From positions 133,198 to 197,197 of IMG/VR virus record IMGVR_UViG_3300036761_001580: 64,000 nucleotides of DNA; one strand, given 5' to 3'. The notes under the pieces were generated by a model. That model had not been told where the DNA came from, ran no database searches, and was given only the letters and a program-made list of their open reading frames with translations. Positions 7,742-48,002 of this stretch are shown piece by piece. The stretch comes from a virus. The first letter of the stretch is position 1. Each line of letters begins with the position of its first letter. Both the position numbers and the translations under genes were made by a program.

Positions 7742-8807
7742 ACGCCTTCACCGCGAACATGCCCCAGATGACCTTCGGGTTCGAAGTCGTCCTCATGAAC
7801 TCGACGGTCACCTCCCACTCCCGGACCAGGCGTTCAACGTCAGGGAGCCTTAATCTTAAATTACGAGAAAACCCTTCGAAGGTTAGACCACTCAGGCACT
7901 CGACATTTTCTGAAGGAATACCTGCAAGAAACATCGAAAAGTCCCGCAACAACACAGGAATTCCCTCTATAAATAGGTTCTGAAGGTCCCAACCCTCGTA
8001 ATACCAGCATCGAATTTTTTCTAAAAAAAGTCTCAAATCCTTCCGATCCAGGACCTCCGCGAGCTGTCCGTACTCCTCCCGAGAGATGACCCCAACGGAA
8101 TCTCGGAGGAGGTTGACGTCGACAACACCGTCACCCGCGGCCAAGACCATGCTTTCGAGGATCTGCTGCGCGTCCCTGAGAGAGCCCCCTCCGAGCATCC
8201 CCAAGCGGTTCACGAAGTCCTCGGTGTACTGCCGACCCTCGGCGGTGAGGATCATCCTGGCGTTGTCCGCGACCTCCTTCGAGTTGAGCACCCTCAGAGG
8301 AGCCGAAAGGCACCTCGACCTGAGCGTGTCCTCGACCTTCTGAGGGTCCGTGGACGCCAGCAGGAACACAGTCCGTGGCGGAGGGTCTTCGACCTGCTTG
8401 AGCAGTGCGGCCTGAGCCTGCTTCGAGAGCATGTGGCACTCGTCGAGGATCAGAACGCGGTACTTGTGGATCACCGTCTGACGCAGGATCCCTTCCAGGT
8501 CACGCACGTCGTCGACCCCGTTGTAGGACGCTGCGTCCCTTTCAAGGATCGAAAGATGAGAGTCGGCCGCTTCTCGGCAGGAAGGGCACGTTCCGCACAG
8601 GTCGCCCACGGTCTTGAAGTTCTCGCAATTCAGCGCGCGAGCGTACAGCCGGGCCAAGGTGGTCTTCCCGGTGCCCCGAGTACCGGCGAAGAGGATCGCC
8701 GCCGGTACTCGGTCCATCAGAATCGAGTTCCTCAAGATCCGGCACGTCACCGGCTGGCCGACGACCTGTGCGAACGTCGCAGGTCGGTATTTTACCGAAT
8801 ACTGCAT
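7725..8807 (-). CDS. dnaX: DnaX-like clamp loader ATPase (DNA polymerase III gamma/tau-like, AAA+)
   Basis: KYRPATFAQVVGQ box, Walker A GTRGTGKTTLARL, Walker B ILDECHML, sensor-1 TLRSRC. The start was trimmed to the internal ATG at 8807 (MQYSVKYRP), which overlaps the upstream stop as TGATG. Confidence 0.8.
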   Translation of the reverse strand: MQYSVKYRPATFAQVVGQPVTCRILRNSILMDRVPAAILFAGTRGTGKTTLARLYARALNCENFKTVGDLCGTCPSCREAADSHLSILERDAASYNGVDDVRDLEGILRQTVIHKYRVLILDECHMLSKQAQAALLKQVEDPPPRTVFLLASTDPQKVEDTLRSRCLSAPLRVLNSKEVADNARMILTAEGRQYTEDFVNRLGMLGGGSLRDAQQILESMVLAAGDGVVDVNLLRDSVGVISREEYGQLAEVLDRKDLRLFLEKIRCWYYEGWDLQNLFIEGIPVLLRDFSMFLAGIPSENVECLSGLTFEGFSRNLRLRLPDVERLVREWEVTVEFMRTTSNPKVIWGMFAVKACGCGQ

Positions 8808-9673
8808 CAGGGCTTGTAGAACGGCAAAGCGATGCCGTAGAACTCCTTCACCGCCTTGGCGATGCGCAAGCACCTCGGGCTCTTCGGGTCGTTCTTCCAC
8901 CCCCACTGACCGAAAGTCGAGAGGTTCGTCATCTTCCAGGCCTTGTCGAAGTAGGCCTGAGGGTCACTGACCTCCGCCTTCAGGAACAGCTTGTAGGCCG
9001 CCCCCGGGTTGTTCTGCCAGAGGTTGAAGAACAACGCGACGAGCGCGGAGTCCCACGACGCCGGGTTGTCCGCCTTGAGCAAGTCCCTGATGGTCCTCCC
9101 TCCCAACGGGGGCCTCGGGAAGTCGAGCTGCCGAGCGAACTCGGCCTTGGCGTACGCGATCTGCGCCTCGGGGACGCCGGGCTTCGCTCCCATGTCCGCA
9201 AAGAGCTGCGCGAGAGCAAGAGCTGACTTGTTCGGAGTATCAGACTCGGCACCCATGCAGACATCCACGATCCACTTCTTCCCGACAGCATTGCTGGGAT
9301 CGAGAGCCAACCCACCCACCCAGAACTTCCCGTCTCTAATCTGGAAGCCGAACCGGGAGAAGACCTGAGGACCCCCGATAGCCCCCAAACACACCTGATC
9401 GAACAAGGTATGGTACCCGTTCTCCAGCGGGATCGACTTGAAGCTCTCCAGGAGCTTCTGGAGCCGGCCGCTGGTGAAGGTCCACTGTAGGAACCCCCAG
9501 GTCACCCCGGTGCCGTCGTACATGACGACGGTGTCGTGGTTGCCCTCACAGCGCGCGACCACGCCGAGGACCTTCGTCCAGGGCCCCCAGGGCTGCGCGG
9601 GGTTGAACCCGACGGATCCGATGACCCGGGGGCCACCTCCGTCCTTCCACTTGACCCACTGTGCTTTCGGCAT
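8807..9673 (-). CDS. hypothetical protein, ~289 aa
   Basis: Track ORF 8807..9784 trimmed to the internal M (MPKAQWVKW) just after the upstream stop at 9676. No confident motif. A lysozyme/transglycosylase-like role was considered and could not be supported. Confidence 0.45.
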   Translation of the reverse strand: MPKAQWVKWKDGGGPRVIGSVGFNPAQPWGPWTKVLGVVARCEGNHDTVVMYDGTGVTWGFLQWTFTSGRLQKLLESFKSIPLENGYHTLFDQVCLGAIGGPQVFSRFGFQIRDGKFWVGGLALDPSNAVGKKWIVDVCMGAESDTPNKSALALAQLFADMGAKPGVPEAQIAYAKAEFARQLDFPRPPLGGRTIRDLLKADNPASWDSALVALFFNLWQNNPGAAYKLFLKAEVSDPQAYFDKAWKMTNLSTFGQWGWKNDPKSPRCLRIAKAVKEFYGIALPFYKP

Positions 9674-15496: not shown

Positions 15497-16251
15497 AGCT
15501 CGCTCGCTTTCAGGTAGATGGGCTGCAACGACTCGTCCTGGATAAAAGAACGCTCCATACAGTGATAGGCTTGGAGGATCTCCACCTTGGCGGCACGAAC
15601 ACTATTCACGGTCATTCGGAGGCTCATCGCCAGGTAGGAGTCCTCCGCGAAGACCCCTTCCAAGAAAAGATCAAAGACCCGACGCGCCGGCTCAGAGAGC
15701 TGCGGAACAATCTCATGGTACATCTGAGCCGCCGAGAAGAGGCTCTCAGGATCGACAGAGAATCGTGCTTGCATGTCAACAAACTCATCAGTGGTCTCCA
15801 AAGAGACCACCTCGGTCGAAACATCCCGCTTGTGCATGAGAGACCCACGTAAAATGTCAACGCACTGCTGCTGGATCTTCTTGTAGAGGAAGCTGAAGAA
15901 CTTGGCCCTCCGCACTTCAGTGGCCTCCGACCGCTCCACCTTCAGAGACTTCCGAATCTTGTTCAACTTCGGGGTCTCCAGGAGAAGAAGGCCCTCTTCC
16001 ACCCCACGACATTGATACAAGGACTTGCGGTACTTGTAGACGGGAGCCCGGTAGAAATCACACGCGGCGGAGAACACGCAGAGCACCTCTCCAAGAATGT
16101 CCTCCTCTGAGGCTTTCGTTGCCTCAGCGACCTGGATCACCGCTTTGAAAACGAAAGGAGCCATCTTGCAGAAGGCCTGCGCCTGCTCGGAGTTGTCCCG
16201 CTTCAGAGCTTCGGTGATGACCCGAAGTCGTTTTCCCAGAGTGCTCTTCAA
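15493..16251 (-). CDS. hypothetical protein (~250 aa, start trimmed)
   Basis: Track ORF 15493..16650 has a Gly/Arg-rich N-terminus that is out-of-frame read-through of the primase gene. A plausible start is TTG 16251, overlapping the primase TGA as TTGA. The ATG at 16164 (MAPFVFK) is an alternative. Confidence 0.45.
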   Translation of the reverse strand: MKSTLGKRLRVITEALKRDNSEQAQAFCKMAPFVFKAVIQVAEATKASEEDILGEVLCVFSAACDFYRAPVYKYRKSLYQCRGVEEGLLLLETPKLNKIRKSLKVERSEATEVRRAKFFSFLYKKIQQQCVDILRGSLMHKRDVSTEVVSLETTDEFVDMQARFSVDPESLFSAAQMYHEIVPQLSEPARRVFDLFLEGVFAEDSYLAMSLRMTVNSVRAAKVEILQAYHCMERSFIQDESLQPIYLKASEL

Positions 16252-17183: not shown

Positions 17184-17247
17184 TCCACACCTACAAGGTC
17201 ACGTAGAAGTCACATATCGAAGGCTGAATCTATATCACAGACGCTCC

Positions 17248-23425: not shown

Positions 23426-24135
23426 CGTTTCGCATCGACCTCTTGCACGAGCTTCATCCACTCCTGGTCCTCGGAGTGCTCTGGCTCCGAGAGCTTCTCC
23501 TTCTTGGTCGGCGGCAGGTTGTACTCCATCCACCGCATCACGAGGTCCGGCACCGACTTGGAGATGGGCACCCCTGTGAGCGTGGTGATCCCCTTGGGAG
23601 AGAACTCACGGGCCTTGAACTTGTTGTAGAGCTTCACCGGGTGGACACCGAACTGGAGCAGCATCGAGATGGCGATGGCCCAGCAGTTCGCGAAGCCGTT
23701 CATCTCGTGACCGGACTTGCCCATCTCTATGAACACCTCACCGGGGGTGCCGTCGTCGTACACGCTCACGGTGAAGTAGCCCTCCACGTTGACGATCTCC
23801 CCGTCATCAGACTGGCTCGCCAGGCTGAACTTGCAGGTGCGGCTCTTCCGCTCGTCCGCCAAGTGGTAGCGAACCGGATTCGGCTTCCCCTGAGGGGAGG
23901 TGCCGTAGGGGGGCGGGCTGTAGTCTACAGGAACCGCCTCAGGTGGAGGCTCTTCCACTTTCACGTCAGAAGCTACCACCACCGCAGTAACAAGCTCCGC
24001 GGCGGGCTCCGCCTCCTTCTTCTCTGGAGGGGGCCAAAGTCTGACCTCATCACGGTTGGCAGGTTCCTCTTTGATGAGCATGGAACCGCTGTTCCAGATG
24101 TTGGTACCTTTGGGGGATTCTGAAGGTTCTGTCAT
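23422..24135 (-). CDS. TSCPD-domain protein (domain otherwise found at the C-terminus of class II ribonucleotide reductases)
   Basis: GEVFIEMGKSGHEMNGFANCWAIAISMLLQFGVHPVKLYNKFK...TGVPISKSVPDLV matches the TSCPD pattern (EvFinvGKaGsCasa..A..liS.aLr.Gv...SCPDai). N-terminal Pro/Glu-rich linker. Start trimmed to MTEPSESPKG. Confidence 0.5.
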   Translation of the reverse strand: MTEPSESPKGTNIWNSGSMLIKEEPANRDEVRLWPPPEKKEAEPAAELVTAVVVASDVKVEEPPPEAVPVDYSPPPYGTSPQGKPNPVRYHLADERKSRTCKFSLASQSDDGEIVNVEGYFTVSVYDDGTPGEVFIEMGKSGHEMNGFANCWAIAISMLLQFGVHPVKLYNKFKAREFSPKGITTLTGVPISKSVPDLVMRWMEYNLPPTKKEKLSEPEHSEDQEWMKLVQEVDAKR

Positions 24136-25679
24136 CTTGTCGTCCTTTTCGCTAAGAAGTCGTGAACCACCGTGGCAGCGTACCCCACGTCTCGGTCGTT
24201 CTGGGTCGACCGACACGCGGCCGACGGGTGCAGGCTGATGGCGACGTAGGCCTCAACAGGCCCTATGAGACCTTCAGGATTTTCCAGGATCTCTCCGCAG
24301 TGCTTCGTGACCCTACTCCTGTACGGAGTTACAGCCATCATCGCCTCGTTGCCGAAGGCGATGATCAGCTTGGGCTTCAAGAGGTCGATTTCGGCTCTCA
24401 GGTACGGCAGGCACGCCTTGATCTCAGGGTAGGTCGGTGGACGGTCGTCCTGGGAGTAGCACTTGCAGGTGTTCGTGATCCAGCACTCCCGCCGGTCGAT
24501 GCCGGCCTCCTCCAGGAACTGGTTCAAACGGCCTCCGGCAGGTGCCCCGGGGAAGAACGGCTGGCCGTACCGCCGCTCCTGAAGCCCGGGGTTCCTCCCG
24601 AGGATCATGATCTGCCGGTCGGACGAGCCCTCAGGGTAGGTCGGGCCCTCCGGATCGCAGTCCTGCCTCAAAGGGCACCGGTTGCACTGCGAGATCGCCA
24701 AGTCGACCTCTCCCAGAGAGGCCCAGGACCGATTCTGGCCGCTGTTCTGCTCCATGCACGCCACCATGCCCGTCAGGTCCGAAGAATAGGCTGGGAGCCG
24801 CCCTGCGTTCGTGAGGAACGTAGGCCCGATCCGCTCCGACAACACCTGCGACCGAAAAGCGTCCCTCGACAGCGGAACCGTGAGGCTTTCGACGAGGAGC
24901 TGGTGCTCTTCCTCCGAGAGGCACTCGGCAGCCTCTCGCAAGGTCGGCAGCTTCACGAGCCTGTACATCTCCGCGACGAATTCACCCTCAGGGAGGATCC
25001 GGGCGGTCGTCTTCCGCTTCTCCAAGAACTCCACATTCTCAGGGCTCAGGATCTCCCCGAGGCTGCCGAACTTCTTCAACAGCTTGGCCGCGGTCTTCTC
25101 TCCGACCTGCTTCACCCCGGGAAGGTTGTCGGAGGGGTCCCCGACGAGAGCCTTGAAGTCGGCGATCCTGTCCGGAGGCACGCCGAGGTCCTCCTCGACG
25201 ACTCCCGGGGTGACGAGGAGCTGGCGCTGAGAGTCCCAAACGTTCAACTTGAAATCGACGAGCTGCCACAGGTCCCGGTCACCGGTCACGAGCACGATGT
25301 GCCAATCCCCCGGAAGGCTCTTGAAGTGGTCCGACAGCCAAGCAAGCGTGTCGTCCGCTTCGACACCGGAGACCAGCACCTGACGAACCCCCACCGAGGT
25401 CAGGTAACGCTGCACGAGGATCCCCTGCTCATTGAGAGCTTCGAGATCCAGGTCGCTGTCCCTCTTCTGCTGGAGGCGATGGGCCTTGTACTCCTCGTAC
25501 AGCTCGCTGCGCCACCGAGACTTTCCACGGTCCCAGCAGACGATCACATCGTCGGGTGCGAACTGGCTCAAGACCTCGAAGATGTAGGTCAGGATCTTGT
25601 TCGCGACCATCTCCATGGGACTGGAGTGCGCAGCGCGCCACAAGAACGGGTTTCCGTCGATGAGGAGGACTCGGGGCAC
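24132..25679 (-). CDS. fusion protein: N-terminal 5'-3' exonuclease/FEN (Pol I 5'-nuclease-like) + C-terminal family-4-type uracil-DNA glycosylase-like domain with Fe-S cysteines
   Basis: 5'-nuclease motifs LLIDGNPFLWRA, GVEADD, TGDRDLWQLV, H3TH GDPSDNLPGVKQVGEKTAAKLL. UDG-4-like motifs CNRCPL, ILGRNPG (motif A variant), GRLNQFLEEAGI, CWITNTCKC, IIAFGNEAMMAV, LHPSA (motif B). Confidence 0.75.
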   Translation of the reverse strand: MPRVLLIDGNPFLWRAAHSSPMEMVANKILTYIFEVLSQFAPDDVIVCWDRGKSRWRSELYEEYKAHRLQQKRDSDLDLEALNEQGILVQRYLTSVGVRQVLVSGVEADDTLAWLSDHFKSLPGDWHIVLVTGDRDLWQLVDFKLNVWDSQRQLLVTPGVVEEDLGVPPDRIADFKALVGDPSDNLPGVKQVGEKTAAKLLKKFGSLGEILSPENVEFLEKRKTTARILPEGEFVAEMYRLVKLPTLREAAECLSEEEHQLLVESLTVPLSRDAFRSQVLSERIGPTFLTNAGRLPAYSSDLTGMVACMEQNSGQNRSWASLGEVDLAISQCNRCPLRQDCDPEGPTYPEGSSDRQIMILGRNPGLQERRYGQPFFPGAPAGGRLNQFLEEAGIDRRECWITNTCKCYSQDDRPPTYPEIKACLPYLRAEIDLLKPKLIIAFGNEAMMAVTPYRSRVTKHCGEILENPEGLIGPVEAYVAISLHPSAACRSTQNDRDVGYAATVVHDFLAKRTTR

Positions 25680-25691: not shown

Positions 25692-26858
25692 TTAGAGTTT
25701 GCGAATTGACAACTTCTTCTGCGGCTCGCCTTCCATCTTCGCGAGGAGCTTCTGAACCTCTTCCAGCTTCACGGCTCCCGGGGCGTTCCCGGCAGCAACG
25801 GACTCCTTGAAGCGTGCCCACTTCAACCTGTCGATCTTCAGAGTCAGGAGGTCGTCGTTCCCAGACTCCTGGCACCACTCGATGATCGAGGCCTCGTCCT
25901 GGAAGGAGGACTCGAAGTCGTCCGAGATCTGGGCCACGAAGCCTTCAGCCTCCAGGCAGCCCTCGGAACCGTACTTCTGGATGAAACCATTGAAGAACAC
26001 CTGGTACGCAGGATAGCGGGCATCGAAGTTCATCTGAGCACGACTGAGGGCCTCCTGAGCTTCGAGATAGGTGGAGGCTGTGGTCCCGAACAGGACCATG
26101 TCGTCCCTTTTCTGCTGCTCAGCCTCTTCGAGGCGTTTCTGCTCCTCGGCTGCGAGCCGCTGGCGCTCCTGCTCTTCCTGCTCGGCACGCACCTTCTCCG
26201 GATCCTCGACGGGCTCGGACTGCGCAGCGGTGCCCGGGATCGGCGGAGGACCGGCCGGTGGCACCGGAAACACCGAAGGGGCGACCTTCAGGATGTTCAC
26301 GGCACCGGAGAGCGCGTAGGCCTGCTGGACGGACCAAACCGAAGGATCCCCTTCGGCCCGGCAGAGGAGCATCACGTCCCCCGCGGATTCAGCCTTACTG
26401 AACACCTGTACGGTCAACTTCGAGACCGCTGCGCTGGTCCACGCACCTGTGACGGCATCCTGCCGCCATGTCGGGCCATCGAGCTGCAAGACAGAGCCCA
26501 CCGGGAGATCCAGATGGGTCGCAGGAGGGACCCCTGGAGGGGTGGCCGGTGGCACCGCCGCCACTTCCGACACCTGAGCAGCAGCTTCGGAAGCGGAAGC
26601 CTTCGACTTCCCCACCCGGGACGGCGGGGGTGTGGACTCGGGGACCTCCGGAGGCGGATCGGCCGCAGGAGGAGTCGAAGACTCGGCCACGGAAGCGTCC
26701 ACAGGGCCGTCCGTGGGCTTCTTCTTCCCCGAGTGCTTCGCCGTCATGTGCGTCTTCAGGTACCGGGGGCTCGTGAAACCCCCTTTTCCACAAATACTGC
26801 AAACGATCTCAGGGGCTGAACCTTCTGCGGGAGCGCCAGCGTTGGCTTCGTCCGACAT
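25692..26858 (-). CDS. C2H2 zinc-finger / coiled-coil protein (start trimmed to ATG 26858)
   Basis: MSDEANAG..CSICGKGGFTSPRYLKTHMTAKH (C2H2). Pro-rich linker. Charged coiled coil (QEEQERQRLAAEEQKRLEEAEQQKR). GGAGGA Shine-Dalgarno 5 nt upstream of ATG 26858. The track's TTG start at 26963 is probably an over-extension. Confidence 0.6.
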   Translation of the reverse strand: MSDEANAGAPAEGSAPEIVCSICGKGGFTSPRYLKTHMTAKHSGKKKPTDGPVDASVAESSTPPAADPPPEVPESTPPPSRVGKSKASASEAAAQVSEVAAVPPATPPGVPPATHLDLPVGSVLQLDGPTWRQDAVTGAWTSAAVSKLTVQVFSKAESAGDVMLLCRAEGDPSVWSVQQAYALSGAVNILKVAPSVFPVPPAGPPPIPGTAAQSEPVEDPEKVRAEQEEQERQRLAAEEQKRLEEAEQQKRDDMVLFGTTASTYLEAQEALSRAQMNFDARYPAYQVFFNGFIQKYGSEGCLEAEGFVAQISDDFESSFQDEASIIEWCQESGNDDLLTLKIDRLKWARFKESVAAGNAPGAVKLEEVQKLLAKMEGEPQKKLSIRKL

Positions 26859-26966
26859 CGAATCCTCCAGCGGCCAAATAGCCGAAAACGCACCAGAATT
26901 TCCTAGCGCGGGTTTGATGTGGTTGTCCTGCACCGCCTTAAAAGCACGTACAATGCGAAACAACCC

Positions 26967-26996
26967 ACCTTACGCTATAGGGCAGAGTTCTGTCAA
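26967..26996 (-). promoter_or_regulatory. candidate sigma70-type promoter (perfect -35 TTGACA, weak -10 TAAGGT, 18-nt spacer) upstream of gene 25692..26858
   Basis: Minus-strand read: cctgTTGACAgaactctgccctatagcgTAAGGTggg. Lies in the 160-nt non-coding gap. Confidence 0.3.
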
Positions 26997-27021
26997 CAGG
27001 AAAGGAGGAGGAAAAGATCGT

Positions 27022-27564
27022 CTAGGCGCAGTAATCGTCGGCACCGGAGACCACGATGCACTCACTTGGGCAGTTCTCTATGTCTTCAAGGAAGACACAC
27101 TCGCCGGTATCGAGGTCACACTCTCCGGTACCCTCGACCCATATGCGTAGAGCTGGGATACTCTCCGGGTAGCACTCGTTGTCGGGGGGATCATCACACA
27201 CGACACCATCGCAAATACTGTCCATGCAGTAATCGTCCCCGGGGGCCTCGATGCATTCGTAACCGCACGCAATCGTCTCGTATTCGTACTCGCAGGCATC
27301 CTCGATGCACGACGAAGATCCGGTGTACTCGAAGAGGTTCCCCTCCTCGTCACAGGTGTCCGGAGGTGGGTCCGTGCACCCGTCGGCGCAGTCCGTATCG
27401 TAGACCTCGTCGGTGTCCGTGTCGGAATCGGCATCCGAGTCGGAGTCGATGTCCGAATCGGAATCCCCTCCATCGACCCCCGCGTCCTCCTCGAAGAGAG
27501 GAGAACCATCTTCTGCACAGCCGGCGAACAGAACCAGAGCCATGACCAACAGCATCTTCTTCAT
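27022..27564 (-). CDS. secreted lipoprotein with Asp/Ser-rich repeat and Cys-rich acidic domain
   Basis: MKKMLLVMALVLFAGC (signal peptide + lipobox FAGC), then DSDSDIDSDSDADSDTDTDE, then a region with ~20 Cys and many Asp/Glu. Strong SD AGGGAGG upstream of ATG 27564. The track start 27603 was trimmed. Confidence 0.65.
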   Translation of the reverse strand: MKKMLLVMALVLFAGCAEDGSPLFEEDAGVDGGDSDSDIDSDSDADSDTDTDEVYDTDCADGCTDPPPDTCDEEGNLFEYTGSSSCIEDACEYEYETIACGYECIEAPGDDYCMDSICDGVVCDDPPDNECYPESIPALRIWVEGTGECDLDTGECVFLEDIENCPSECIVVSGADDYCA

Positions 27565-27607
27565 CTCGGGCCTCCCTTTGTTCAGCCAAGTCCCTCCTGG
27601 CACCTAT

Positions 27608-27635
27608 ATCATAACCATGGCTGTGGGACTGTCAA
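27608..27635 (-). promoter_or_regulatory. candidate sigma70-type promoter: TTGACA -16 nt- TATGAT, upstream of the lipoprotein gene
   Basis: Minus-strand read: ccccacTTGACAgtcccacagccatggtTATGATataggtg. ~45 nt upstream of the lipoprotein SD/ATG. Confidence 0.45.
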
Positions 27636-27645
27636 GTGGGGAAAA

Positions 27646-28104
27646 TCACGGTGTGGGGGAGGCGTCTTCAGACTTCGACTCTCGTCTTGTAGCCCCCAAC
27701 TGGGCAGCAGCGAGCTGCTGGATTCCGGAGGCAACCATGTTGACCACGAAAGCGTTTTTCGAGAGGCCACCGCGGCGGGAGAAGTCCACGATCATGTTGT
27801 GAAGGGGTCCTGGGAAGCTGATGAGGAGCTTCTTGGGGGTGTCGGGGGTGTAGGCTCTCCCCGTGGGGCTCCAGTGGCGCGTTCCGTGCTTCGTCCGGTC
27901 CTCCACGACCCCGTGCTCTCGGAGGCACCGCAGGTTGTTTCCCACCTTCGACAGGGAGTAGTTGATGCCGTGCTGCATCATGATGACCTTCTGGACCATC
28001 TCGGTGGACACCCAGTCGTGCTCCACACGGAGAGCCTCCAGTGCGGCGAGAATCCGCTCGCGCAGCAGGTCACGAATCTCCGTCGTCGTAGCCGCAGAAA
28101 CCAT
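27646..28104 (-). CDS. transcriptional regulator with C-terminal ribbon-helix-helix (CopG/Arc/MetJ) domain
   Basis: C-terminus KKLLISFPGPLHNMIVDFSRRGGLSKNAFVVNMVASGIQQ fits the RHH strand-helix-helix pattern (GLSKNA matches the CopG GLSKSA). Promoter plus palindrome immediately upstream. Confidence 0.65.
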   Translation of the reverse strand: MVSAATTTEIRDLLRERILAALEALRVEHDWVSTEMVQKVIMMQHGINYSLSKVGNNLRCLREHGVVEDRTKHGTRHWSPTGRAYTPDTPKKLLISFPGPLHNMIVDFSRRGGLSKNAFVVNMVASGIQQLAAAQLGATRRESKSEDASPTP

Positions 28105-28132: not shown

Positions 28133-28144
28133 TCCAACACGTAC

Positions 28145-28173
28145 TATATAGCAAAGGAGGATCGAGATGTCAA
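28145..28173 (-). promoter_or_regulatory. candidate sigma70-type promoter: TTGACA -17 nt- TATATA upstream of the RHH regulator gene
   Basis: Minus-strand read: cctcgTTGACAtctcgatcctcctttgcTATATAgtacg. Perfect -35, 5/6 -10, ideal 17-nt spacer, in the 87-nt gap after the 1580-aa gene. Confidence 0.5.
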
Positions 28174-37032: not shown

Positions 37033-38031
37033 TCAGTATCCTTCCCCGAGACCTTTGGTCTCACCGTCAGGAGTCGCGAGCTGAGCGTCGTTGATGAGCG
37101 ACAACTCCAAGCCCGCCTGGGTGCTGGCAATGGATTTCATGCCGTACACGTAGTAGTATTTGTATGCGCTCGGGCTCGCGACCACGCTGTTCGCAACCAC
37201 AGAGACATCAACAGAACCTTCGTACGCAGCAAACTGCCATGTCACATCCCGGCTCGCAGTCACGCGCCCCCGCATCCTCCGGTCGCCAACGACCACAGTG
37301 TCGTGCACGGGCTGGTTCTGAAAAACAGCGAAGGGGCGGTAGTAGAACCACTCGACCCGGGTGACGCTGGCATCGTACGAAGCTGCCAAGTTCCTAGAGG
37401 ACATCCGGAAGTACGCCGGAGTCGACAGGAATCCGGGCAGACGGCAGACGACCGAGCCATTCGCGATGAAGTAGAGATCCGAGTTGTACCTCAGGATCTT
37501 GAAAACAGAGAGCCCCGTCGTCCACGACAACGGGCTCTTCAGCTCGTCCGACTTCACCCCACCCACCCAGGCCTCGCAGTAGAGCTTCAAGACGCCGAAC
37601 TTGTCCAGACGCACGTACATCTCCGCGTAGTTCGTGGCGTTGATCCATAGAGTCAAAGCGAAGACGTCGACATCAGACAACGGCAAGGACGCCGGGTTGG
37701 AGATAACCACCCGAGCTTCTCCTTGCGTGGAGCCCCACAACATCACAGACTCGATCCCCGCGGTAGAGCCTGGAACCGCTCCGGTGAACAGCTCCAGGTG
37801 GTAGGCCCCCGTCGAAACGGACCCTCCTACGGACACGTCTAGCCACTTCACAGGATCCAAAACCAAGCCCGTGAAATAATCGTCCCACTGACGGGGATCG
37901 AATCCTGTTCCCGTGATGACGAAGGCGTTCCCCCCCGGAGCGGGACCTTCAATAGGGTTCACCGCACTGATCGTGGTGTCGGGCCCGTAGAGAACGCCCG
38001 TGCCGTACTTGAACAGTGAGTAGTAACCCAT
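37033..38031 (-). CDS. baseplate/tail-fibre-associated protein (~332 aa, start trimmed to MGYYSLF)
   Basis: Position immediately downstream of the baseplate J-like gene (P2 gpI-like slot). Gly/Thr/Ser/Val-rich beta-type composition. Confidence 0.45.
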   Translation of the reverse strand: MGYYSLFKYGTGVLYGPDTTISAVNPIEGPAPGGNAFVITGTGFDPRQWDDYFTGLVLDPVKWLDVSVGGSVSTGAYHLELFTGAVPGSTAGIESVMLWGSTQGEARVVISNPASLPLSDVDVFALTLWINATNYAEMYVRLDKFGVLKLYCEAWVGGVKSDELKSPLSWTTGLSVFKILRYNSDLYFIANGSVVCRLPGFLSTPAYFRMSSRNLAASYDASVTRVEWFYYRPFAVFQNQPVHDTVVVGDRRMRGRVTASRDVTWQFAAYEGSVDVSVVANSVVASPSAYKYYYVYGMKSIASTQAGLELSLINDAQLATPDGETKGLGEGY

Positions 38032-38042
38032 GGCACCGCCCT

Positions 38043-39473
38043 CTACGACACGAGGCTGATGATGAGATCCGCCGCTTCCAAGTAGGCGTAGTCCATCGGA
38101 CCAATCAGGATGTCCCCCACCCCGGTCCCACCCTTGACCGCCAAGGTGACGTACACCCAATTGTCCACACCGCTAACGGACGCGACCTGAGCGTCGATGT
38201 CGAACTCCTCAACATCCATCCCAAGTTTCAACGAATTGATGTATGTGAGAACCTTGTCCCTAACGGAACCCAGAATAGTAGTCGGGTTGCCAGAACCAAC
38301 CTTCAATTCTGCCTCAACGACAATGCTCTTTTTCTGAGCCCAGCGATACAGCACATCGGAACCCATGACGAGGTACACGGGCTGTTTATACAGCGCCGTA
38401 ACGATATTGATCATCGCGTTGTATTGGTATACAATTCTCAAAGGAGCATTCAAAGCAGGGGCTGCCCCTCCGATGAGGAACCGGATCCCATCTCGGCCCC
38501 GGTTGCTGTAGGCGTAGATCCCCTCCCCGGTCACAACCTCGTAGTCGACCCCTTCGGTATAGTAGGTGGGCCCACTGGAGACAGCCGTAACCGAGATGAG
38601 CGGTTGCTTGGGAAGAGGAACCAGCTCACGCACACCTCGGTAGTAGGTGTCGTAGGTATCAGTAGCTGGAGCTGTAGACTTGATCCAGACATCTGACGCT
38701 CCCGCATCTTCAGATTGACGCTCCAAGTTTGGATCAGCCCCATAGACAACGTGGCTGTCTTCAATATTGCTCATCAAGTTCAATGCAAACGCTTTGAGTC
38801 CTGTAGGAGTGGCCTCCTGATTTCCTGTAATACGAGTCTGATACCGAATCGCCAGGTCAGAGTTCGTCTCCAACCCACGGCCTGTCGTAGTAGCTGACTT
38901 GTTCGTAACGTACTCGAAATCTGGAAACGACCGACGAAACTGGGTGATCGTGTAGGCCCCAACCATGGTGTTTCCGCCAGCAACCACGCTCACCGCGGCA
39001 ACATCGATCTCGTACCGTTGAGTCTGAACATTGTAGTACGATGACGGGGACACGGTCAATGGGCCGTACATAGTCTTCGTCTCGATTGTCCGGAAATTGA
39101 CAACCTGTCCAGTCTTCGGGTCCGTTTTAGTTGCCAACGGAAAATTCAAAGGGACTGTAATATCCGCAGAAGGAGGAAGCAATCGAGAAAAAGTAACGAC
39201 CGTATAGGAGGGGGAGCCCGTCCACCTAACCACGTTCTCGTTATAAACAAAAGCATCCAGATCCTCAGGATTGAAGGTCCCTGCATTCTGCATGCTCAAC
39301 AGTTGGCTGAGATACACGATGTTATCGTGAATACCCTTCATGACCTCGGACGGCGGGGTGATGTACAGGTCTCTGATCGGACCGATGTAAGTGTCAATAG
39401 TCTCATCACGAGACGCAATTCCGTTAGAAATAAGGTCCTCGAACTGGGCTACGGTTCTTCGCTGAATGACCAT
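38043..39473 (-). CDS. baseplate J-like protein (Mu gp47 / P2 gpJ / T4 gp6-like wedge)
   Basis: 476 aa. Synteny (after the gpW-like small gene, before fibre genes) and size. Call is from context plus general similarity, not a hard motif. Confidence 0.5.
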   Translation of the reverse strand: MVIQRRTVAQFEDLISNGIASRDETIDTYIGPIRDLYITPPSEVMKGIHDNIVYLSQLLSMQNAGTFNPEDLDAFVYNENVVRWTGSPSYTVVTFSRLLPPSADITVPLNFPLATKTDPKTGQVVNFRTIETKTMYGPLTVSPSSYYNVQTQRYEIDVAAVSVVAGGNTMVGAYTITQFRRSFPDFEYVTNKSATTTGRGLETNSDLAIRYQTRITGNQEATPTGLKAFALNLMSNIEDSHVVYGADPNLERQSEDAGASDVWIKSTAPATDTYDTYYRGVRELVPLPKQPLISVTAVSSGPTYYTEGVDYEVVTGEGIYAYSNRGRDGIRFLIGGAAPALNAPLRIVYQYNAMINIVTALYKQPVYLVMGSDVLYRWAQKKSIVVEAELKVGSGNPTTILGSVRDKVLTYINSLKLGMDVEEFDIDAQVASVSGVDNWVYVTLAVKGGTGVGDILIGPMDYAYLEAADLIISLVS

Positions 39474-39476
39474 GGT

Positions 39477-39911
39477 CTACCTCGTCGTCCCGCCCAAGGC
39501 GAAGTTCGGCAGGTTCCCTACCGAGAAGAAGTCCACACGCCACCTGAAAACCCGAGGATCGGTCGTGTCCCCCCAGATCTGAACCGGAGAAAAATCATCC
39601 AAAAGTTCTTTAAAGGTGCGCCGACTATATTGGAAGTTACGTTGCACGTATCGATAACGGTCCAGAGCATCTTTCACAAGCATCTGAAACTGGAACATCA
39701 GCGGCGTGGATCCCACTGGCGAAGGCTCTCCGTCAGTGGAACGACCAACAGCCTGCCTAAGGCTGGCCCCCAAACCACTTGGCCGTATATCCGTAGTCAA
39801 GATCATCCGACACTCTTGTTTGAGCTTATCAAGATCCGTAACTCTGTCGTAACCGTTGTTCGAAAATTTCCGAACCACATCCCCATTCACTACTTTTAGG
39901 GTCCAGCTCAT
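39477..39911 (-). CDS. small baseplate protein (gpW/gp25-like slot), 144 aa
   Basis: Position between the spike/hub genes and the J-like gene. Size typical of a baseplate wedge subunit. Confidence 0.35.
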   Translation of the reverse strand: MSWTLKVVNGDVVRKFSNNGYDRVTDLDKLKQECRMILTTDIRPSGLGASLRQAVGRSTDGEPSPVGSTPLMFQFQMLVKDALDRYRYVQRNFQYSRRTFKELLDDFSPVQIWGDTTDPRVFRWRVDFFSVGNLPNFALGGTTR

Positions 39912-39912
39912 C

Positions 39913-40413
39913 TTACGGCACCACCGATGCTGCTTCCATCTTGGCCCAATATATCGCGTCGTCGATGGACTCTACCAGTGCGACCAACTCGTTCTTGATC
40001 CCCTCCCAGTACTGAAAGAGGACCTCTACTTCGTCCATGAAGGATAGCACATTTTTGTAGCGTTCCCTATAGATGCTCAGAGCCGCTACAGAGAGGTCAA
40101 AAATCTGCAACGCAGGGTCCGTAATGAGCTGGTAAAACTCCGGGCACAGCTCCTTAAAAGGCCCTCCGGGTATGGCCGTCAGCGCGTTTCTGATCGTGTC
40201 AATGATGGCTTGAACGATGGCCCAAGCTGCCTCCTCGATGGCCTTCAGGATGTCGAGTTGGGAGAGTAAGGCTTTCAAGAGCTGGACCTGGAGGTCGATG
40301 AACTGGATGATCGCGAGTAGTATCGCCTTCAGAGCCTCCAGAAGAGGAGCGACTTGGGCGTACAGCCACTCCAGGATGCACTTCGCGATGGTTCCGCCTA
40401 CAGTGAAGGCCAT
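39913..40413 (-). CDS. hypothetical tail/baseplate protein, 166 aa
   Basis: Track ORF, tight spacing in the operon, helical composition. Confidence 0.4.
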   Translation of the reverse strand: MAFTVGGTIAKCILEWLYAQVAPLLEALKAILLAIIQFIDLQVQLLKALLSQLDILKAIEEAAWAIVQAIIDTIRNALTAIPGGPFKELCPEFYQLITDPALQIFDLSVAALSIYRERYKNVLSFMDEVEVLFQYWEGIKNELVALVESIDDAIYWAKMEAASVVP

Positions 40414-40420
40414 GTTTCAC

Positions 40421-41890
40421 CTACAACGTCATCGACTTCGTCGACAACGATCCACTCAAAGCGGCAGCAAGAGCCGTTGCCGCAGCCGCCAGGGCCGTGA
40501 ACTGAGCAGTCCCCGGTAGGAACACCGGGATCGCTGCCAGGGCCGTAAAAGCCGTGCTGGAGGCCGCAAGGTACGCCGCCAGCGCCGCGTTGAACGTCGT
40601 CCCCTTGATCAAGGGCTCGGACGCTCCGATCCCGAGCAGCATCAATGGAGAGTCCAGAGTCAAGGGACCGCCCACGCACGACATCACGCAAGGGCTCGCC
40701 CCCAGGGAGATCGAGGGGGCCGCCAGCGCGATGGACGCCGCCTTCAGGGTCATCGCCGCCGCGGCCGTCAGGTCCATCGTAGCGCCCGCAGTGGCACTCC
40801 AGGCTCCGGCCACCGTGAAGTCCATCTTCCCACCCACCTTCAGGCTGTAGTCGATTCCGACGTCCAAGGCGTACGTCGTAGTGGTTTTCCAGTTGACCAT
40901 CGTGTTCAGAACGGTCCAGGTCGAGGCCGGCGTGAACCACTGGAGCCCTACGGCCGTCTTGGCTGACACACCCCAGTTCCCCAGGTTGTCGGTCATCTCC
41001 ATCCACATGGGAACCATGCCCGAGGCGTCATCCATGACCTCCCGGAGGATCCTGACTCCGGTGCCTGTGAGAGCTACCGCGAGATCCGGAGAGAAGGTCG
41101 CTGGAGGCACGATCTGTGCCGTCAGGTCGTCGACCACCTCACCTTCAGAGGTGCGCACCATGATCTGACCCGCAGGGAATGGGATCGTTGCTCTCTTAAC
41201 GTAGTGAGTGTGCTCCTGTGCCACGCTGCCGAACATCACGTCATAGACTGGCATCTCCGAAGTATCAACAGGAGTCAAAAGACGCTTCACAGAGCCCGAC
41301 CTCGACTCCGAGGCCCCACCGTAGCGCTGATGGATGAGATCCGACTGGAGGGTCACTTCGTTCCGGGGCTTGTCCAGTGTGATCGAGTGCGATCCGGCTG
41401 TCAGTGAGATGCGGTCACCCATGTAAAACGCGCAGCCCCTCGCGCTCTTGAAACTCCAGTCTCCTGGACGGAGACGCTTACCCGAAGCATCACCCCAGCC
41501 GATCCCCCCACGGTCCTCGGTGCTGTCGTCAAGACGCTTCATAACGCGAAAGTCCACAGTGCTGTATCCAAGGGCGTGAGCCTTACCCTTGGTATCGAAC
41601 GCCACAAGGATGACGTCATCCAGCTGCGGACAATAAACACCCCAGGAAAATCTCAAATAATTTTTATCAGTATCACCCTCCTGCGTAGGAGCAGAAAATC
41701 CTATGAGGGGGATAGGTATCGTACGAGGATCTCCACCATCAAGAAACACTACACCAACGGTACCCTCCTCCAGATGCAAATCCTTCACCTGCACCTTGTG
41801 TATTGTAGAGTAATACTCCCGGTGTAGACGACGGTCTTCCAGAATCGAAGAAGTAGCCGGATTCGTATTTATACGCCCACAACCACCCAT
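40421..41890 (-). CDS. baseplate central spike / hub protein (gpV/VgrG-like), 489 aa
   Basis: Position in the Mu-like order. C-terminal Ala/Thr/Leu/Ser-rich repetitive tail (TAGATMDLTAAAAMTLKAASIALAAPS..) typical of spike C-termini. Confidence 0.4.
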   Translation of the reverse strand: MGGCGRINTNPATSSILEDRRLHREYYSTIHKVQVKDLHLEEGTVGVVFLDGGDPRTIPIPLIGFSAPTQEGDTDKNYLRFSWGVYCPQLDDVILVAFDTKGKAHALGYSTVDFRVMKRLDDSTEDRGGIGWGDASGKRLRPGDWSFKSARGCAFYMGDRISLTAGSHSITLDKPRNEVTLQSDLIHQRYGGASESRSGSVKRLLTPVDTSEMPVYDVMFGSVAQEHTHYVKRATIPFPAGQIMVRTSEGEVVDDLTAQIVPPATFSPDLAVALTGTGVRILREVMDDASGMVPMWMEMTDNLGNWGVSAKTAVGLQWFTPASTWTVLNTMVNWKTTTTYALDVGIDYSLKVGGKMDFTVAGAWSATAGATMDLTAAAAMTLKAASIALAAPSISLGASPCVMSCVGGPLTLDSPLMLLGIGASEPLIKGTTFNAALAAYLAASSTAFTALAAIPVFLPGTAQFTALAAAATALAAALSGSLSTKSMTL

Positions 41891-41897
41891 GACAACC

Positions 41898-44456
41898 TCA
41901 GTAGAAAGCGTCCGGATCCTTAGGAGCCGACTGCTTCGAAATATAGGGTTTTTTACTTGTCAGTAAGGCCGCATAACTGAAAGGCATATCCCCTCCAAAA
42001 TGACGGAACACCTCCATCCTGTTTCCTCCGGGCTGAAGCTCTCCCTTCCACCCACGAGCGTAATTCACGTTGACCGCAGTGTCACAAGAGCTGTTGACAG
42101 CAATGCTATGCTGGCAGCTCACGATGTTCGCCACGTAGTTCCTCTGCCTCCAGTATAGAGGTCGGTTCACCATCAATCCGAAGTGCGGCAGGATCTGTAT
42201 ATTCAAGGACCTTGCCTCGGAGTTAGACCTACGGAGATCGATAGCGGCGAAGACCGCAGCCGCCTCATCGGTCACCACCTCCGTCCAAGGGCTCTTCTCA
42301 GAGGCAGGTCGGAAACCCAAGAGACCGGCCAGCTCGGGGGCTATCACGAACTGGGTATGCCGCGTGTCTCGGTTGTTCAGATCTTGTCCCTGTTTCGCGA
42401 TATTCCCTGGGGTACACCTCGCTACGGTTTTTAAACCGCTGTCACTCACTGCGTTGCTGAAGCCGTAGGTCTCATGCTTGTCTATAGTGAAATATGCCCC
42501 GTAGTTCATCTCCCCACCGTCGGTCAGGGAGGCATAACGAGTGGAGCCCGACTCAAAGGCATGCTCGGATCCGTAGCCCTCAGTGAGAAGACTGAGGTCC
42601 GAAGACATCTGCATCATCTCGTAGATCTGGTCTTCCGTGTATTTGGTACTACCCTCAGCCCACCCCTGCAAGTTCTCCCGCGCAGTCTGAATCGCGGATT
42701 CGATGTCCGCGTTGCTAACGGTAGCCCCTTCGTAATCGAACATCCAAGGGTCGAAATCGTAGAAAGGCATCTCGAAGACGAGATCACCCTTGGGAGTGGC
42801 GTAGAAGCAGAACTGGATCTGATCCGCTGCATCGTACAGAAAAGTAAGACGATCCTTGAACTCGGAGTGCAAGCCGCCCCCGGCCCCGGCCATCATCTCA
42901 TTCAGAACTCCCGAAGCAGTACCCATTGCCAGCCCCGAGGGCGCGACATAGAATACACGGCCCCCGCCAACGGGGTAGTCCTCTTCGTGCTGCCCAATCT
43001 GAGTGATAATGTCGTAAGGTGTCGTCATCTGCGACTTGTAGGCCTGGGCGGCTGCGGTCTTCCCCATGATCTCCGGATCCTTAGAAGTGACTCGATGGTG
43101 GATGTAATCGTTCAGTTTCCGGAGTTCGGCAACATCGAGATGCTCACCACCCATAGATTCTTCCAAGGACCACCCAAGACGGGCGGCCTCCAGCATCGTG
43201 GGAGGAGGACTTCCAAGGAATATAGCATGAACGCCGTACTTCTCGTTCTTCCTCTTGAACATCGCCTCTCCGCGAGGATTACAGATCGGCGGAAGATTAG
43301 CGCCAGTAAGCCGATTGAGCTTATAACCCTCCAGATACTGCTTCAAGAGCTTCGTATTCTCTGTGGGGCTCAACGCCGCGATCTCATCGGCGCTCATACC
43401 AGTTGCGGTATTCATCAAGTAGATGTTACCTTCCGCGGTACTCATGAACGCAAGGGCGTAATCAGTCATCTCGGAAAGGGTTCCCCTATAGGAGTCCAGA
43501 CCGAAGAAGAGGAGTTCCAAAATCTCATACACGGAGAAATAAGCAAACAGCTCCTGATATGGCACCCAGTTTATGGAACCAACGTTCTGGAAAATCGGGA
43601 ACAGAGCGGCCATCGCAGGATCAAGAACCGCATCGACATTCATCTGGAAGAAGGAGTACCGCGCCAGCTTGGACACGTCAGTACCCGAGATAGTAACAAC
43701 AGACTCCTGGTTCACCCCGCGGTCCTCCACAAAACCATCCACGAAGCCAGCGAACATCCAATACCAAACAGTGGGACTAAATGGATCCCTGAACGCGATC
43801 CTGATGGGGTCATTGGGATGGAAAATGCAATCGCCTTCAGTGAGGGGATACACATACCGCGCAGTGGTGTCCCCCTCGAAGACGTTTTGGTACATAGGAT
43901 CGTCTTTTTTGTCCGCATAGAGTTCATCCCATTTCGGAATGATAACACTGGACTTCTTGGCAAGGACTACCGGCTTGATGGTCGCAGGCACGGATCCGTA
44001 CGTCCAGTTGTTTCCGCCCTGCGCGGTTTTCAATTTTTTATAAAAGTCATCTACCACCCCGGCCATCTCCGCCGATTGCTCAGAATTCATGTACTTCTGC
44101 ATATACTTGTACACTTCAGCAGGATCTTCACCAGCATTGTCCGCCTGAAAACGTTGCGTGCTCATATAAGCAGTCTGGTTCTGTCCCAGGGTAGTCGCCA
44201 GCCAGTCTCGACTACTGGCGATCACCGTCATGTCCATGTGGTCCAAGATGTACTTGTCACCCATGTTAGCCAGAGCGATAGTGCACGTCCCCGGGGACCG
44301 ATCCATGCTTCCACCGGATTGATTCACCCTGACTTCAATGACGTCCCCGGACACTTCTTGCCCATAGATGAAAACACGAAAAGCCGGGAACGCTGCACGG
44401 TAGATCCCTTCCTGGGATGAGGTTCCAGTAGCCTGATTTTTCAATATACCGTCCAT
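41898..44456 (-). CDS. large tail/baseplate hub-associated structural protein, 852 aa
   Basis: Located between the tape-measure genes and the spike (the Mu P/Q slot). No catalytic motif recognised. Confidence 0.45.
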   Translation of the reverse strand: MDGILKNQATGTSSQEGIYRAAFPAFRVFIYGQEVSGDVIEVRVNQSGGSMDRSPGTCTIALANMGDKYILDHMDMTVIASSRDWLATTLGQNQTAYMSTQRFQADNAGEDPAEVYKYMQKYMNSEQSAEMAGVVDDFYKKLKTAQGGNNWTYGSVPATIKPVVLAKKSSVIIPKWDELYADKKDDPMYQNVFEGDTTARYVYPLTEGDCIFHPNDPIRIAFRDPFSPTVWYWMFAGFVDGFVEDRGVNQESVVTISGTDVSKLARYSFFQMNVDAVLDPAMAALFPIFQNVGSINWVPYQELFAYFSVYEILELLFFGLDSYRGTLSEMTDYALAFMSTAEGNIYLMNTATGMSADEIAALSPTENTKLLKQYLEGYKLNRLTGANLPPICNPRGEAMFKRKNEKYGVHAIFLGSPPPTMLEAARLGWSLEESMGGEHLDVAELRKLNDYIHHRVTSKDPEIMGKTAAAQAYKSQMTTPYDIITQIGQHEEDYPVGGGRVFYVAPSGLAMGTASGVLNEMMAGAGGGLHSEFKDRLTFLYDAADQIQFCFYATPKGDLVFEMPFYDFDPWMFDYEGATVSNADIESAIQTARENLQGWAEGSTKYTEDQIYEMMQMSSDLSLLTEGYGSEHAFESGSTRYASLTDGGEMNYGAYFTIDKHETYGFSNAVSDSGLKTVARCTPGNIAKQGQDLNNRDTRHTQFVIAPELAGLLGFRPASEKSPWTEVVTDEAAAVFAAIDLRRSNSEARSLNIQILPHFGLMVNRPLYWRQRNYVANIVSCQHSIAVNSSCDTAVNVNYARGWKGELQPGGNRMEVFRHFGGDMPFSYAALLTSKKPYISKQSAPKDPDAFY

Positions 44457-44467
44457 CTAGGTCTCCG

Positions 44468-45247
44468 CTACTCAAGCTCATTGAAGAATTGGGTCCCCAA
44501 CGAGAGTGAAATGTACCTAAAAATATCATCCATGGATGGCATCGTCTCCGTCGCCACGAAGCTGAACGAGTAGTTCTTACTAAACGGGTTGGACGCATCG
44601 TCCGTGAATTCCAAAACCCGGTCAAAATACCCAATGAATGTAATCATGGCGTTACCTAAGATAGGGCTCGTATACATAAAGTAGGACTTATTCGGAATTC
44701 CGGAAAACGGATCTATCACGGGTTCCCGCGTCATGCTGTATAGATTCCAGAAGTTCAGCAACTTCGAAGCACCCGCCAAAGTCTCTACATCAAGGCCCTC
44801 CTGCTTCGTCTGCGATTTCAAAAAGTCACGGAGCCTCTTGGTCTGCTTGGAGACCACACTGTTTCGTTGCATCCCCGTCCTGATATTTATGTTCCCCGTA
44901 CTTCCCGAGAACGCTATATTGATAACGTCGTTGTTCCGACCCTTCGCATTGGTCCAGTGAAAAAACACCGCGCCAGACTGAGTGTCCCTCCTGGTGATCC
45001 TCTTGTTCTGCGTAAAGGTCACCGTCTCGGGGTTCATCTTCATACGCACAGGATCGATGTCGTTCCGAGTCCTGTGATCCGAACTGAAGACAAAAGGAAC
45101 CCGGTAAGACACATCCTCGTAGGGATTAAGAATTCGCTCAAGTATACGCTCAGCAGAAGGGGCTTGGATCCCATTGCTAGTACCGAAGGCCTCCATCATG
45201 TTCTTCCAAAATTGTTGCTTCGTAATAGCCATGTATACACCTATCAA
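44468..45247 (-). CDS. tail protein, 259 aa (unassigned)
   Basis: Track ORF directly downstream of the tape-measure paralog cluster. Confidence 0.45.
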   Translation of the reverse strand: MIGVYMAITKQQFWKNMMEAFGTSNGIQAPSAERILERILNPYEDVSYRVPFVFSSDHRTRNDIDPVRMKMNPETVTFTQNKRITRRDTQSGAVFFHWTNAKGRNNDVINIAFSGSTGNINIRTGMQRNSVVSKQTKRLRDFLKSQTKQEGLDVETLAGASKLLNFWNLYSMTREPVIDPFSGIPNKSYFMYTSPILGNAMITFIGYFDRVLEFTDDASNPFSKNYSFSFVATETMPSMDDIFRYISLSLGTQFFNELE

Positions 45248-45265
45248 ACCCCGCCGGAGGCAGGG

Positions 45266-48001: not shown

Positions 48002-48002
48002 G

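Follow-up and report, generated by a model that had tools for sequence, protein, structure and literature searches.

A promoter-bearing, cysteine-rich lipoprotein gene of a large tailed phage: an accessory cassette and a candidate for superinfection exclusion

The question raised by this locus is why a large tailed phage would carry, between its fibre and replication modules, a separately promoted gene for a small, cysteine-rich lipoprotein. The locus belongs to a 64,000-nt stretch of an IMG/VR virus record (IMGVR_UViG_3300036761_001580, positions 133,198 to 197,197; hereafter, the window), which is part of the genome of a large tailed phage of about 200 kb. The lipoprotein gene occupies positions 27022-27564 on the minus strand (180 codons plus the stop codon at 27022-27024). 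An earlier annotation made from the letters alone (hereafter, the sequence-only reading) had described it as a promoter-driven lipoprotein gene and a possible moron or superinfection-exclusion gene. The comparisons presented here demonstrate that the phage carries it as an autonomous, moron-like accessory cassette that consists of a sigma-70-type promoter and a single gene. The best overall explanation, put forward tentatively, is that this moron-like cassette supplies an envelope lipoprotein that would block further phage attack.

Promoter, start codon and accessory nature of the gene

In the list of minus-strand open reading frames, the gene appears as a 193-codon frame that opens with a GTG at 27603. 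This GTG was rejected as the start, and the ATG at 27564 is taken as the real one because the ATG and its Shine-Dalgarno sequence are the elements that are conserved in orthologous loci; the protein that starts from this ATG consists of 180 amino acids (aa) and begins MKKMLLVMALVLFAGCAEDG. The Shine-Dalgarno sequence AAGGGAGG (27571-27578, minus strand), with a GGAGG core that ends 6 nt 5' of the ATG, is as strong as originally claimed, and AAGGG and the ATG are conserved across the orthologous upstream regions (alignment A3). The sigma-70-type promoter (27608-27635, minus strand) consists of TTGACA at 27635-27630, a 16-nt spacer and TATGAT at 27613-27608, matches the consensus in 11 of the 12 positions and lies 3' of the stop codon that ends the upstream gene, within a gap of 41 nt. 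No other site in the 64 kb combines a perfect -35 element with a good -10 element; the chance expectation for such sites is 0.53, and the count alone is not significant. A consensus scan of the same 64 kb yielded 14 sites with at least 9 matches out of 12, among which the lipoprotein promoter is the only intergenic one. In the alignment of the upstream regions of orthologues, whose encoded proteins are 52-63% identical, TTGACA, TGGTTATG, the Shine-Dalgarno sequence and the ATG are invariant and the bases around them vary. The -35 element is invariant and a -10-like box is conserved in the orthologous loci L007, L009/L010 and L011, the last of these having TTGACA-16-TACATT. Thus, the promoter noticed in the sequence-only reading is credible because of its context, that is, the intergenic location and the conservation in orthologues, rather than because of the site count.

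The gene is optional and mobile, as indicated by its absence from a related phage, its swapped position in one sub-lineage, the presence of its relatives in non-homologous phage-like neighbourhoods and a divergence faster than that of the flanking genes; together with the conserved promoter, these observations lend good support to the suggestion that it is a moron. In related contigs, too, the gene lies between the fibre and replication modules. The gene order in the window is fibre, putative regulator, lipoprotein; in the P0006/P0173 sub-lineage, it is fibre, lipoprotein, regulator. In a more distant relative, represented by L017/L018, the fibre gene, the regulator, the homologue of the 388-aa protein gene located downstream in the window (p388) and the gene for an exonuclease/uracil-DNA-glycosylase (UDG) fusion follow in order without the lipoprotein gene, for which the best hidden Markov model E-value at that locus is 0.19; the identity to the window phage is 56% for the exonuclease/UDG, 51% for the regulator and 34% for the fibre. 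A lipoprotein of the same two-module build (P0141; see below), 34-35% identical, is encoded on phage-like contigs of 162-192 kb, where the gene is preceded by TTGACA-17-TATATA and nothing else in the 16.6 kb examined resembles the window (L012). Joint transfer of the regulator and the lipoprotein into other phages was considered and rejected, the L012 flanks being unrelated. A three-module version (P0148) is found in yet another phage-like neighbourhood, with TTGAAA-17-TAAAGT upstream. With respect to the rate of divergence, the L007 lipoprotein is 52% identical to that of the window phage, compared to 88% and 74% for the flanks, and the L011 lipoprotein is 49% identical, compared to 79% and 62%; at 50-60% protein identity, synonymous changes have reached saturation. 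Despite this divergence, the lineage has kept the lipobox, the promoter and all 16 cysteines of the mature protein.

Fast divergence, a truncated architecture and the absence from a relative would also be compatible with a functionless passenger, namely, a piece of a host lipoprotein gene that was captured recently and is drifting. However, the reading frame is intact, and the 16 mature cysteines, the lipobox, the Shine-Dalgarno sequence and the promoter are all retained within the lineage at 48-75% identity; except for the first module cysteine, the framework is retained even in P0141, at 34-35% identity and in a different phage-like context. This retention implies purifying selection on the framework, and the passenger scenario appears improbable. 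In the possession of its own promoter, presence/absence polymorphism, a variable insertion point and an envelope-targeted product, the gene is similar to morons such as bor and lom of phage lambda; it differs from these in lacking a recognizable intrinsic terminator and in belonging to a large phage that is probably virulent. No integrase or lysogeny module is present in the 64 kb examined.

As regards the lipoprotein-less relative itself, the L018 contig (JGI 3300014914) is also found in NCBI, inside a metagenome-assembled genome (MAG) labelled Chloroflexi bacterium (locus tag DRJ03_18665), and is probably a phage contig that was mis-binned into this MAG.

Lipid anchor, acidic tether and two cysteine-rich modules

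The signal peptide MKKMLLVMALVLFAG, followed by the lipobox cysteine (aa 1-15 and Cys16, LFAG/C; 27517-27564, minus strand), has an MKK n-region and satisfies a PROSITE-style lipoprotein rule (basic n-region, hydrophobic h-region, lipobox [LVI][ASTVI][GAS]C and the cysteine at position 15-35), as do those of the other six of the seven close orthologues. Cys16 is invariant in the alignment of close homologues, so that the proposed lipoprotein precursor is borne out at the sequence level; the claim that the gene is unrelated to morphogenesis or replication is supported as well. No C-terminal hydrophobic or transmembrane segment is present in the protein. The number of cysteines, originally given as about 20, is 17, of which 16 are in the mature protein; the resulting cysteine content of 9.4%, against at most 3.4% for the other proteins of the window, makes it a clear outlier. 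It is an outlier in acidity as well, with 53 D+E (29%) and only 3 K+R; for the mature protein of 165 aa, the calculated pI is 4.05 and the net charge is about -52.

The lipobox is followed by an acidic D-S/T-D tether of 42 aa (aa 17-58; 27391-27516, minus strand) that contains 19 D/E, 9 S/T and no K/R and is predicted by AlphaFold2 to be disordered (pLDDT, the per-residue model confidence, below 50). The Asp/Ser repeats that had been noticed in it are real and, at the DNA level, form an imperfect tandem repeat at 27409-27466. Among the orthologues, the linker varies in length from 31 to 59 aa and is always acidic and free of K/R; its sequence is not conserved. The sequence-only reading had suggested metal or Ca binding as one option, and a tether of this composition could, in principle, chelate divalent cations: the (D-S/T)n tract and the acidic modules would bind Ca2+/Mg2+ and thereby alter the stability of the outer membrane or the conditions of adsorption. 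The net charge and the high D+E content given above, along with the DxDxD-type tracts, are consistent with such a role, and staphylococcal SD repeats of the Sdr type are the sole matches in the databases. These matches, however, are of low complexity and far below the curated cut-offs, EF-hand, RTX and EGF_CA motifs were not detected, and the lack of conservation of the linker length and sequence is more in keeping with a spacer than with a binding site, so that cation binding seems improbable, if marginally less so than the passenger scenario.

The cysteine-rich part of the protein consists of two copies of one unit of about 55 aa with 8 cysteines each, and this internal duplication is detectable. 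Module 1 (aa 59-113; 27226-27390, minus strand) is conserved and nearly free of indels, contains the pattern C-x3-C-x-DPPxDxC...L..Y.G...C....C.Y......C...C....DDYC and is predicted to form a long beta-hairpin (pLDDT about 90). Module 2 (aa 114-180; 27025-27225, minus strand) has the same cysteine framework, three indel-rich variable loops and a conserved SGADDYC at the C-terminus. The pattern shared by the two modules is C-x3-4-C-x-DPPxDxC...L-x2-Y...G-x-C...C-x-Y...C-x3-C...DDYC. Among the same-synteny orthologues P0002, P0003, P0004 and P0044, the identity to the window protein is 54-80% in module 1 and 37-72% in module 2; the variation is concentrated in the module 2 loops and in the linker length. 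The AlphaFold2 model, which was built from only eight sequences, has a pLDDT of about 90 for residues 55-180 and is rich in beta-hairpins, with no helices. The proposal of a disulfide-rich extracytoplasmic fold is supported by the 16 conserved cysteines and by this confident model. The two-module build, as read from the alignment, is new here and goes beyond the sequence-only reading.

Database searches leave the module without a match. None of the entries in Pfam, NCBIfam, PHROG, PADLOC and PDB matches it: when the protein and its relatives were scanned against Pfam, NCBIfam, PHROGs and PADLOC, the only matches were low-complexity ones to SD repeats and DUF7537, far below the cut-off, and the profile search of PDB sequences gave nothing. 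The tblastn search of 50,697 INPHARED phage records found no match to the lipoprotein, and a pattern scan of IMG/VR found no relative. The scan of genome contigs with a degenerate pattern was confined to one locus, and no other module-bearing genes were found within the window. All close homologues fall into eight clusters at 90% identity, every one of which is metagenomic, and the orthologues are 48-70% identical to the window lipoprotein in BLASTP; the identical protein is encoded on other metagenomic contigs, the longest among those listed being 205,564 bp. A weak CBM14-like lead suggests that each module might be a disulfide-stapled unit of the CBM14/Avr4 type that binds sugars of peptidoglycan, exopolysaccharide or lipopolysaccharide, in which case the protein would mask a polysaccharide receptor or stabilize the envelope during infection; this possibility is an unlikely one.

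The profile of the cysteine-rich part (A2), in contrast to the curated models, retrieved 655 protein clusters (defined at 50% identity) at E<=1e-3, of which 324 remain at E<=1e-10. Most of these relatives are between 400 and 7,000 aa long and match the profile in 4 to 43 stretches, and a rough lipobox pattern is present in 109 of the 156 proteins that comprise 148 new profile matches and 8 close homologues. A Pfam scan of 75 relatives left the repeats unmatched and identified varied non-repeat domains, including Kelch propellers, FGE-sulfatase, LTD, Lcl_C, FG-GAP, IgGFc_binding, PT-HINT and Recep_L. In the relatives inspected, the repeats are N-terminal and follow the lipobox. The few relatives that have organism labels come from MAGs of Myxococcales, Deltaproteobacteria and Proteobacteria/Pseudomonadota; one cluster member is located on a 454-kb contig, which indicates a chromosomal location. 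BLASTP against one of the relatives (P0024) gives an E-value of 2e-9, with two modules aligned in register. Given this placement of the repeats, next to the lipobox and below varied head domains, the comparisons identify the module as an N-terminal stalk or spacer repeat of lipid-anchored surface or periplasmic proteins of Myxococcales/Deltaproteobacteria-type bacteria. By the same comparisons, the phage protein is a headless copy that consists of the anchor, the tether and two stalk modules and has no effector domain. The link of the phage lipoprotein to this large, uncurated family of bacterial stalk repeats is also new here, and the presence of the module in Myxococcales/Deltaproteobacteria MAGs provides a clue to the host range of an orphan phage of about 200 kb.

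Among these bacterial relatives, a one-module lipoprotein (P0008) is encoded in a neighbourhood with multihaem cytochromes (L004 2635-3852). It directly follows a Recep_L_domain-like protein, and the two are fused in P0065, which combines two modules with Recep_L and leucine-rich repeats (LRR).

The homology of the module to bacterial stalk repeats, along with the lack of a head domain, brings up stalk mimicry, whereby the headless stalk would insert among, or pair with, host cysteine-repeat surface lipoproteins and disturb their display. The effects could involve adhesion, cell-cell recognition or matrix binding, and the phage would benefit in a way other than exclusion, for example, from the dispersal of infected cells or from avoiding contact-dependent killing. 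A parallel is provided by the TraA repeat (TIGR04201), a tandem cysteine-rich repeat of exported Myxococcales surface proteins that has been proposed to form a rigid stalk for surface display (PMC3325183). The relatives of the window module likewise contain tandem cysteine-rich repeats, but the TraA repeat is a separate family: neither the phage proteins nor ten bacterial relatives matched TIGR04201 when scanned against NCBIfam, no NCBIfam/TIGRFAM model matches the window module, and the anchor in the window-type proteins is an N-terminal lipobox rather than MYXO-CTERM. Furthermore, the self-association of modules that stalk mimicry requires is purely conjectural. Stalk mimicry is rated as rather unlikely, albeit slightly ahead of glycan binding.

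Possible role in superinfection exclusion

A phage lipoprotein with cysteines could also be a lysis protein, either an o-spanin or a unimolecular spanin, and o-spanins are indeed phage-encoded lipoproteins with cysteines. This reading was rejected on genomic context and architecture, and its probability appears to be very low. There is no adjacent or embedded gene for an i-spanin, holin or endolysin, the neighbours being a winged helix-turn-helix (wHTH) protein and a soluble 388-aa protein. The lipoprotein has no C-terminal transmembrane segment, and, at 165 aa, its mature form is much larger than typical o-spanins. Finally, the gene has a host-type promoter within a three-gene block, not a position in a late lysis cassette, and is missing from a related phage.

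Exclusion of further infection seems the most likely role of the lipoprotein, although this assignment, based on analogy, is held a shade more loosely than the overall explanation. Exclusion is favoured because of the position near the fibre gene, the host-type promoter, the diversification of loops in one module and the Ltp-like architecture. In the proposed mechanism, the host RNA polymerase would transcribe the gene independently of the late programme of the phage, and the product would pass through Sec and receive its lipid at Cys16 from Lgt/LspA. The protein would then be oxidised in the periplasm and remain tethered to an envelope membrane, with about 40 residues as a flexible, polyanionic leash; there, it would alter the surface or the periplasmic face of the infected cell. 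The likeliest result would be a block of further phage adsorption or DNA entry (superinfection exclusion); alternatively, progeny could be kept from adsorbing to infected cells and debris. Either block might come about if the lipoprotein binds or masks a receptor or part of an incoming tail, with the specificity possibly carried by the variable module 2.

The architecture is reminiscent of the Ltp family (Pfam PF07553). Like the window lipoprotein, Ltp is phage-encoded and combines an anchor, a spacer and tandem repeats. In Ltp of the Streptococcus thermophilus phage TP-J34, a lipid anchor and a Ser-rich spacer are followed by a negatively charged tandem-repeat domain in which the negative charges are functionally important and which meets the incoming tape-measure protein (PMC3952083). 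However, there is no sequence similarity between the two proteins: the Ltp family gave no match in a Pfam scan of eight members of the window family at E<=5, and no lipoprotein-family Pfam entry matched even at this threshold. The Ltp repeats are helical, whereas the window modules are predicted to be disulfide-rich beta-hairpins, and Ltp comes from a temperate phage of a Gram-positive host.

The sequence-only reading had pointed to Cor and Llp. Similar to Llp of T5 and Cor of T1- and phi80-like phages, the window gene encodes a small phage lipoprotein near receptor-binding or tail-fibre genes; early expression is a further feature of Llp, and the window gene has a host-type promoter. Mature Llp is about 60 aa long, compared to 165 aa with 16 cysteines for the window protein. 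In T5, Llp is made early, is encoded beside the gene for the receptor-binding protein and contains a single disulfide, Cys11-Cys58 (PMC9586334). The suggested likeness did not extend to homology: apart from low-complexity matches, no PHROG or Pfam family matched, tblastn found nothing in the 50,697 phage records, and the PADLOC models of anti-phage defence gave no match. Thus, neither Cor and Llp nor any other known family of exclusion or defence proteins shows homology to the window lipoprotein. In addition, the window phage has no known TonB-dependent receptor.

Several observations weigh against the overall explanation. First, no intrinsic terminator was found 3' of the lipoprotein gene (the fold z-score of the 3' region is -1.6, and there is no hairpin with a U-tract), for which reason the gene lacks the textbook promoter-gene-terminator layout of a moron. 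Second, the fast divergence could reflect relaxed constraint on a low-complexity, cysteine-framework protein. Third, no sequence or fold relationship to a characterised exclusion lipoprotein or defence protein was found. Fourth, the beta-helix fibre suggests a polysaccharide as the primary receptor, which is not obviously blockable by a small protein. Finally, a strongly basic C-terminus that could be the electrostatic target of an Ltp-type protein was not found in the tape-measure-like protein, nor was any obvious basic target seen in it.

The protein might, alternatively, represent an undescribed class of phage envelope-conversion proteins, in which a headless host stalk co-assembles with, or masks, host proteins and exclusion is achieved by mimicry of a receptor stalk; like stalk mimicry as such, this is considered rather unlikely. 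If it holds true, phage-like elements of 160-205 kb that infect Myxococcota-like hosts would spread a headless stalk as a promoter-bearing cassette, the masked host proteins would possibly include the protein receptor of the phage, and the module would be a new disulfide-rich fold without a solved relative. If, on the other hand, the function merely varies that of the known exclusion lipoproteins, its interest would be moderate. Envelope remodelling by accessory lipoproteins has been described in a small number of model phages that infect E. coli or lactic acid bacteria; to our knowledge, almost nothing has been reported on such proteins in phages of Myxococcota-like bacteria. The gene provides a compact, two-module handle on an uncurated family of bacterial surface-stalk repeats and, being naturally present in some related phages and clearly absent from another, is a candidate for a role in exclusion or envelope conversion.

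Neighbouring genes and other features of the window

The phage has no cultured relative, the best PolA match being 31% identical, and no tRNAs were found in the window. The structural genes identified encode a baseplate-J-like protein, a tape-measure-like protein, a 1580-aa beta-helix (NosD-like) fibre and a 1232-aa protein; the identified replication genes encode the 5'-3' exonuclease/UDG fusion, TSCPD, SNF2, DnaB-like, primase and PolA proteins. The lipoprotein gene is located where the fibre module meets the replication module, with the 1580-aa tail-fibre gene one or two genes upstream of it and all genes on one strand. The upstream neighbour is a putative winged-helix-like regulator of 152 aa (27646-28104, minus strand; phrog_2440, E-value 1.3e-4, and weak Pfam wHTH matches) that adjoins the lipoprotein gene in this phage lineage and is also present where the lipoprotein is absent. 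Downstream, the gene for the soluble 388-aa protein (25692-26858, minus strand) is followed by those for the exonuclease/UDG, TSCPD, SNF2, DnaB, primase and PolA. The location between regulator and replication genes that had been described is thus roughly right, with the qualification that the regulator matches are weak and that the 388-aa protein gene precedes the replication genes.

The possession of a promoter is not unique to the lipoprotein gene, both neighbours having promoters of the TTGACA type. Upstream of the regulator gene, TTGACA-17-TATATA is followed by GTACGTG (28138-28173, minus strand), and upstream of the 388-aa protein gene, TTGACA-18-TAAGGT is accompanied by a conserved TTGTACGTG (26945-26996, minus strand). 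The latter element marks the downstream edge of the inserted cassette, because the same element directly follows the regulator in the lipoprotein-less L017. Of the minus-strand TTGACA hexamers, 5 out of 11 fall between genes, although intergenic sequence makes up only about 10% of the window; other sites of note are at 15779, 15860 and 17258. The three consecutive gaps with TTGACA look like a block of promoters (early ones?) for the host RNA polymerase at the fibre/replication junction.

The TTGTACGTG motif, with at most one mismatch, is present in 19 copies in the window against 7.4 expected, and none of 100 shuffled sequences reaches 19. The copies include 26945-26953, 28138-28146, 15846-15854, 17188-17208, 37612-37620 and 3310-3318; several are located just after TTGACA promoters, and none is found at the lipoprotein promoter. 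The motif may serve the 152-aa wHTH protein as its operator, or it may belong to a class of phage promoters. The 163-nt leader of the 388-aa protein gene (26859-27021, minus strand) is strongly conserved among the orthologous contigs (alignment A6), better than the adjacent lipoprotein coding sequence, and folds modestly (z = -1.6); it may be a regulatory leader.

The exonuclease/UDG gene (24132-25679, minus strand) encodes a 515-aa fusion of a 5'-3' exonuclease, with FEN-like N and C domains, and a uracil-DNA-glycosylase-superfamily domain, and this fusion is kept in all related contigs. The 388-aa protein has a C2H2-like CSICGKGG...H...H near the N-terminus, Pro-rich low-complexity sequence and a charged, coiled-coil-like segment. 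This protein is variable, and the P0005/P0006 lineage has two genes at the respective position, one of which encodes a P22_AR_N-domain protein. The tail/baseplate module (38000-54000) has a GC content of 52-55%, against 58-62% elsewhere, a more negative GC skew and a lower GC3, which suggests that the structural block is of mosaic origin. A second very acidic small protein of 165 aa (58873-59370, minus strand; 31% D+E, no cysteines) contains a C-terminal DUF5661. Finally, a bacterial-type RecA (Pfam E-value 2e-96) and an AAA+ clamp-loader protein similar to the delta' subunit of DNA polymerase III are encoded at 3336-4391 and 7725-8906, respectively, both on the minus strand, and could help to place the host phylogenetically.

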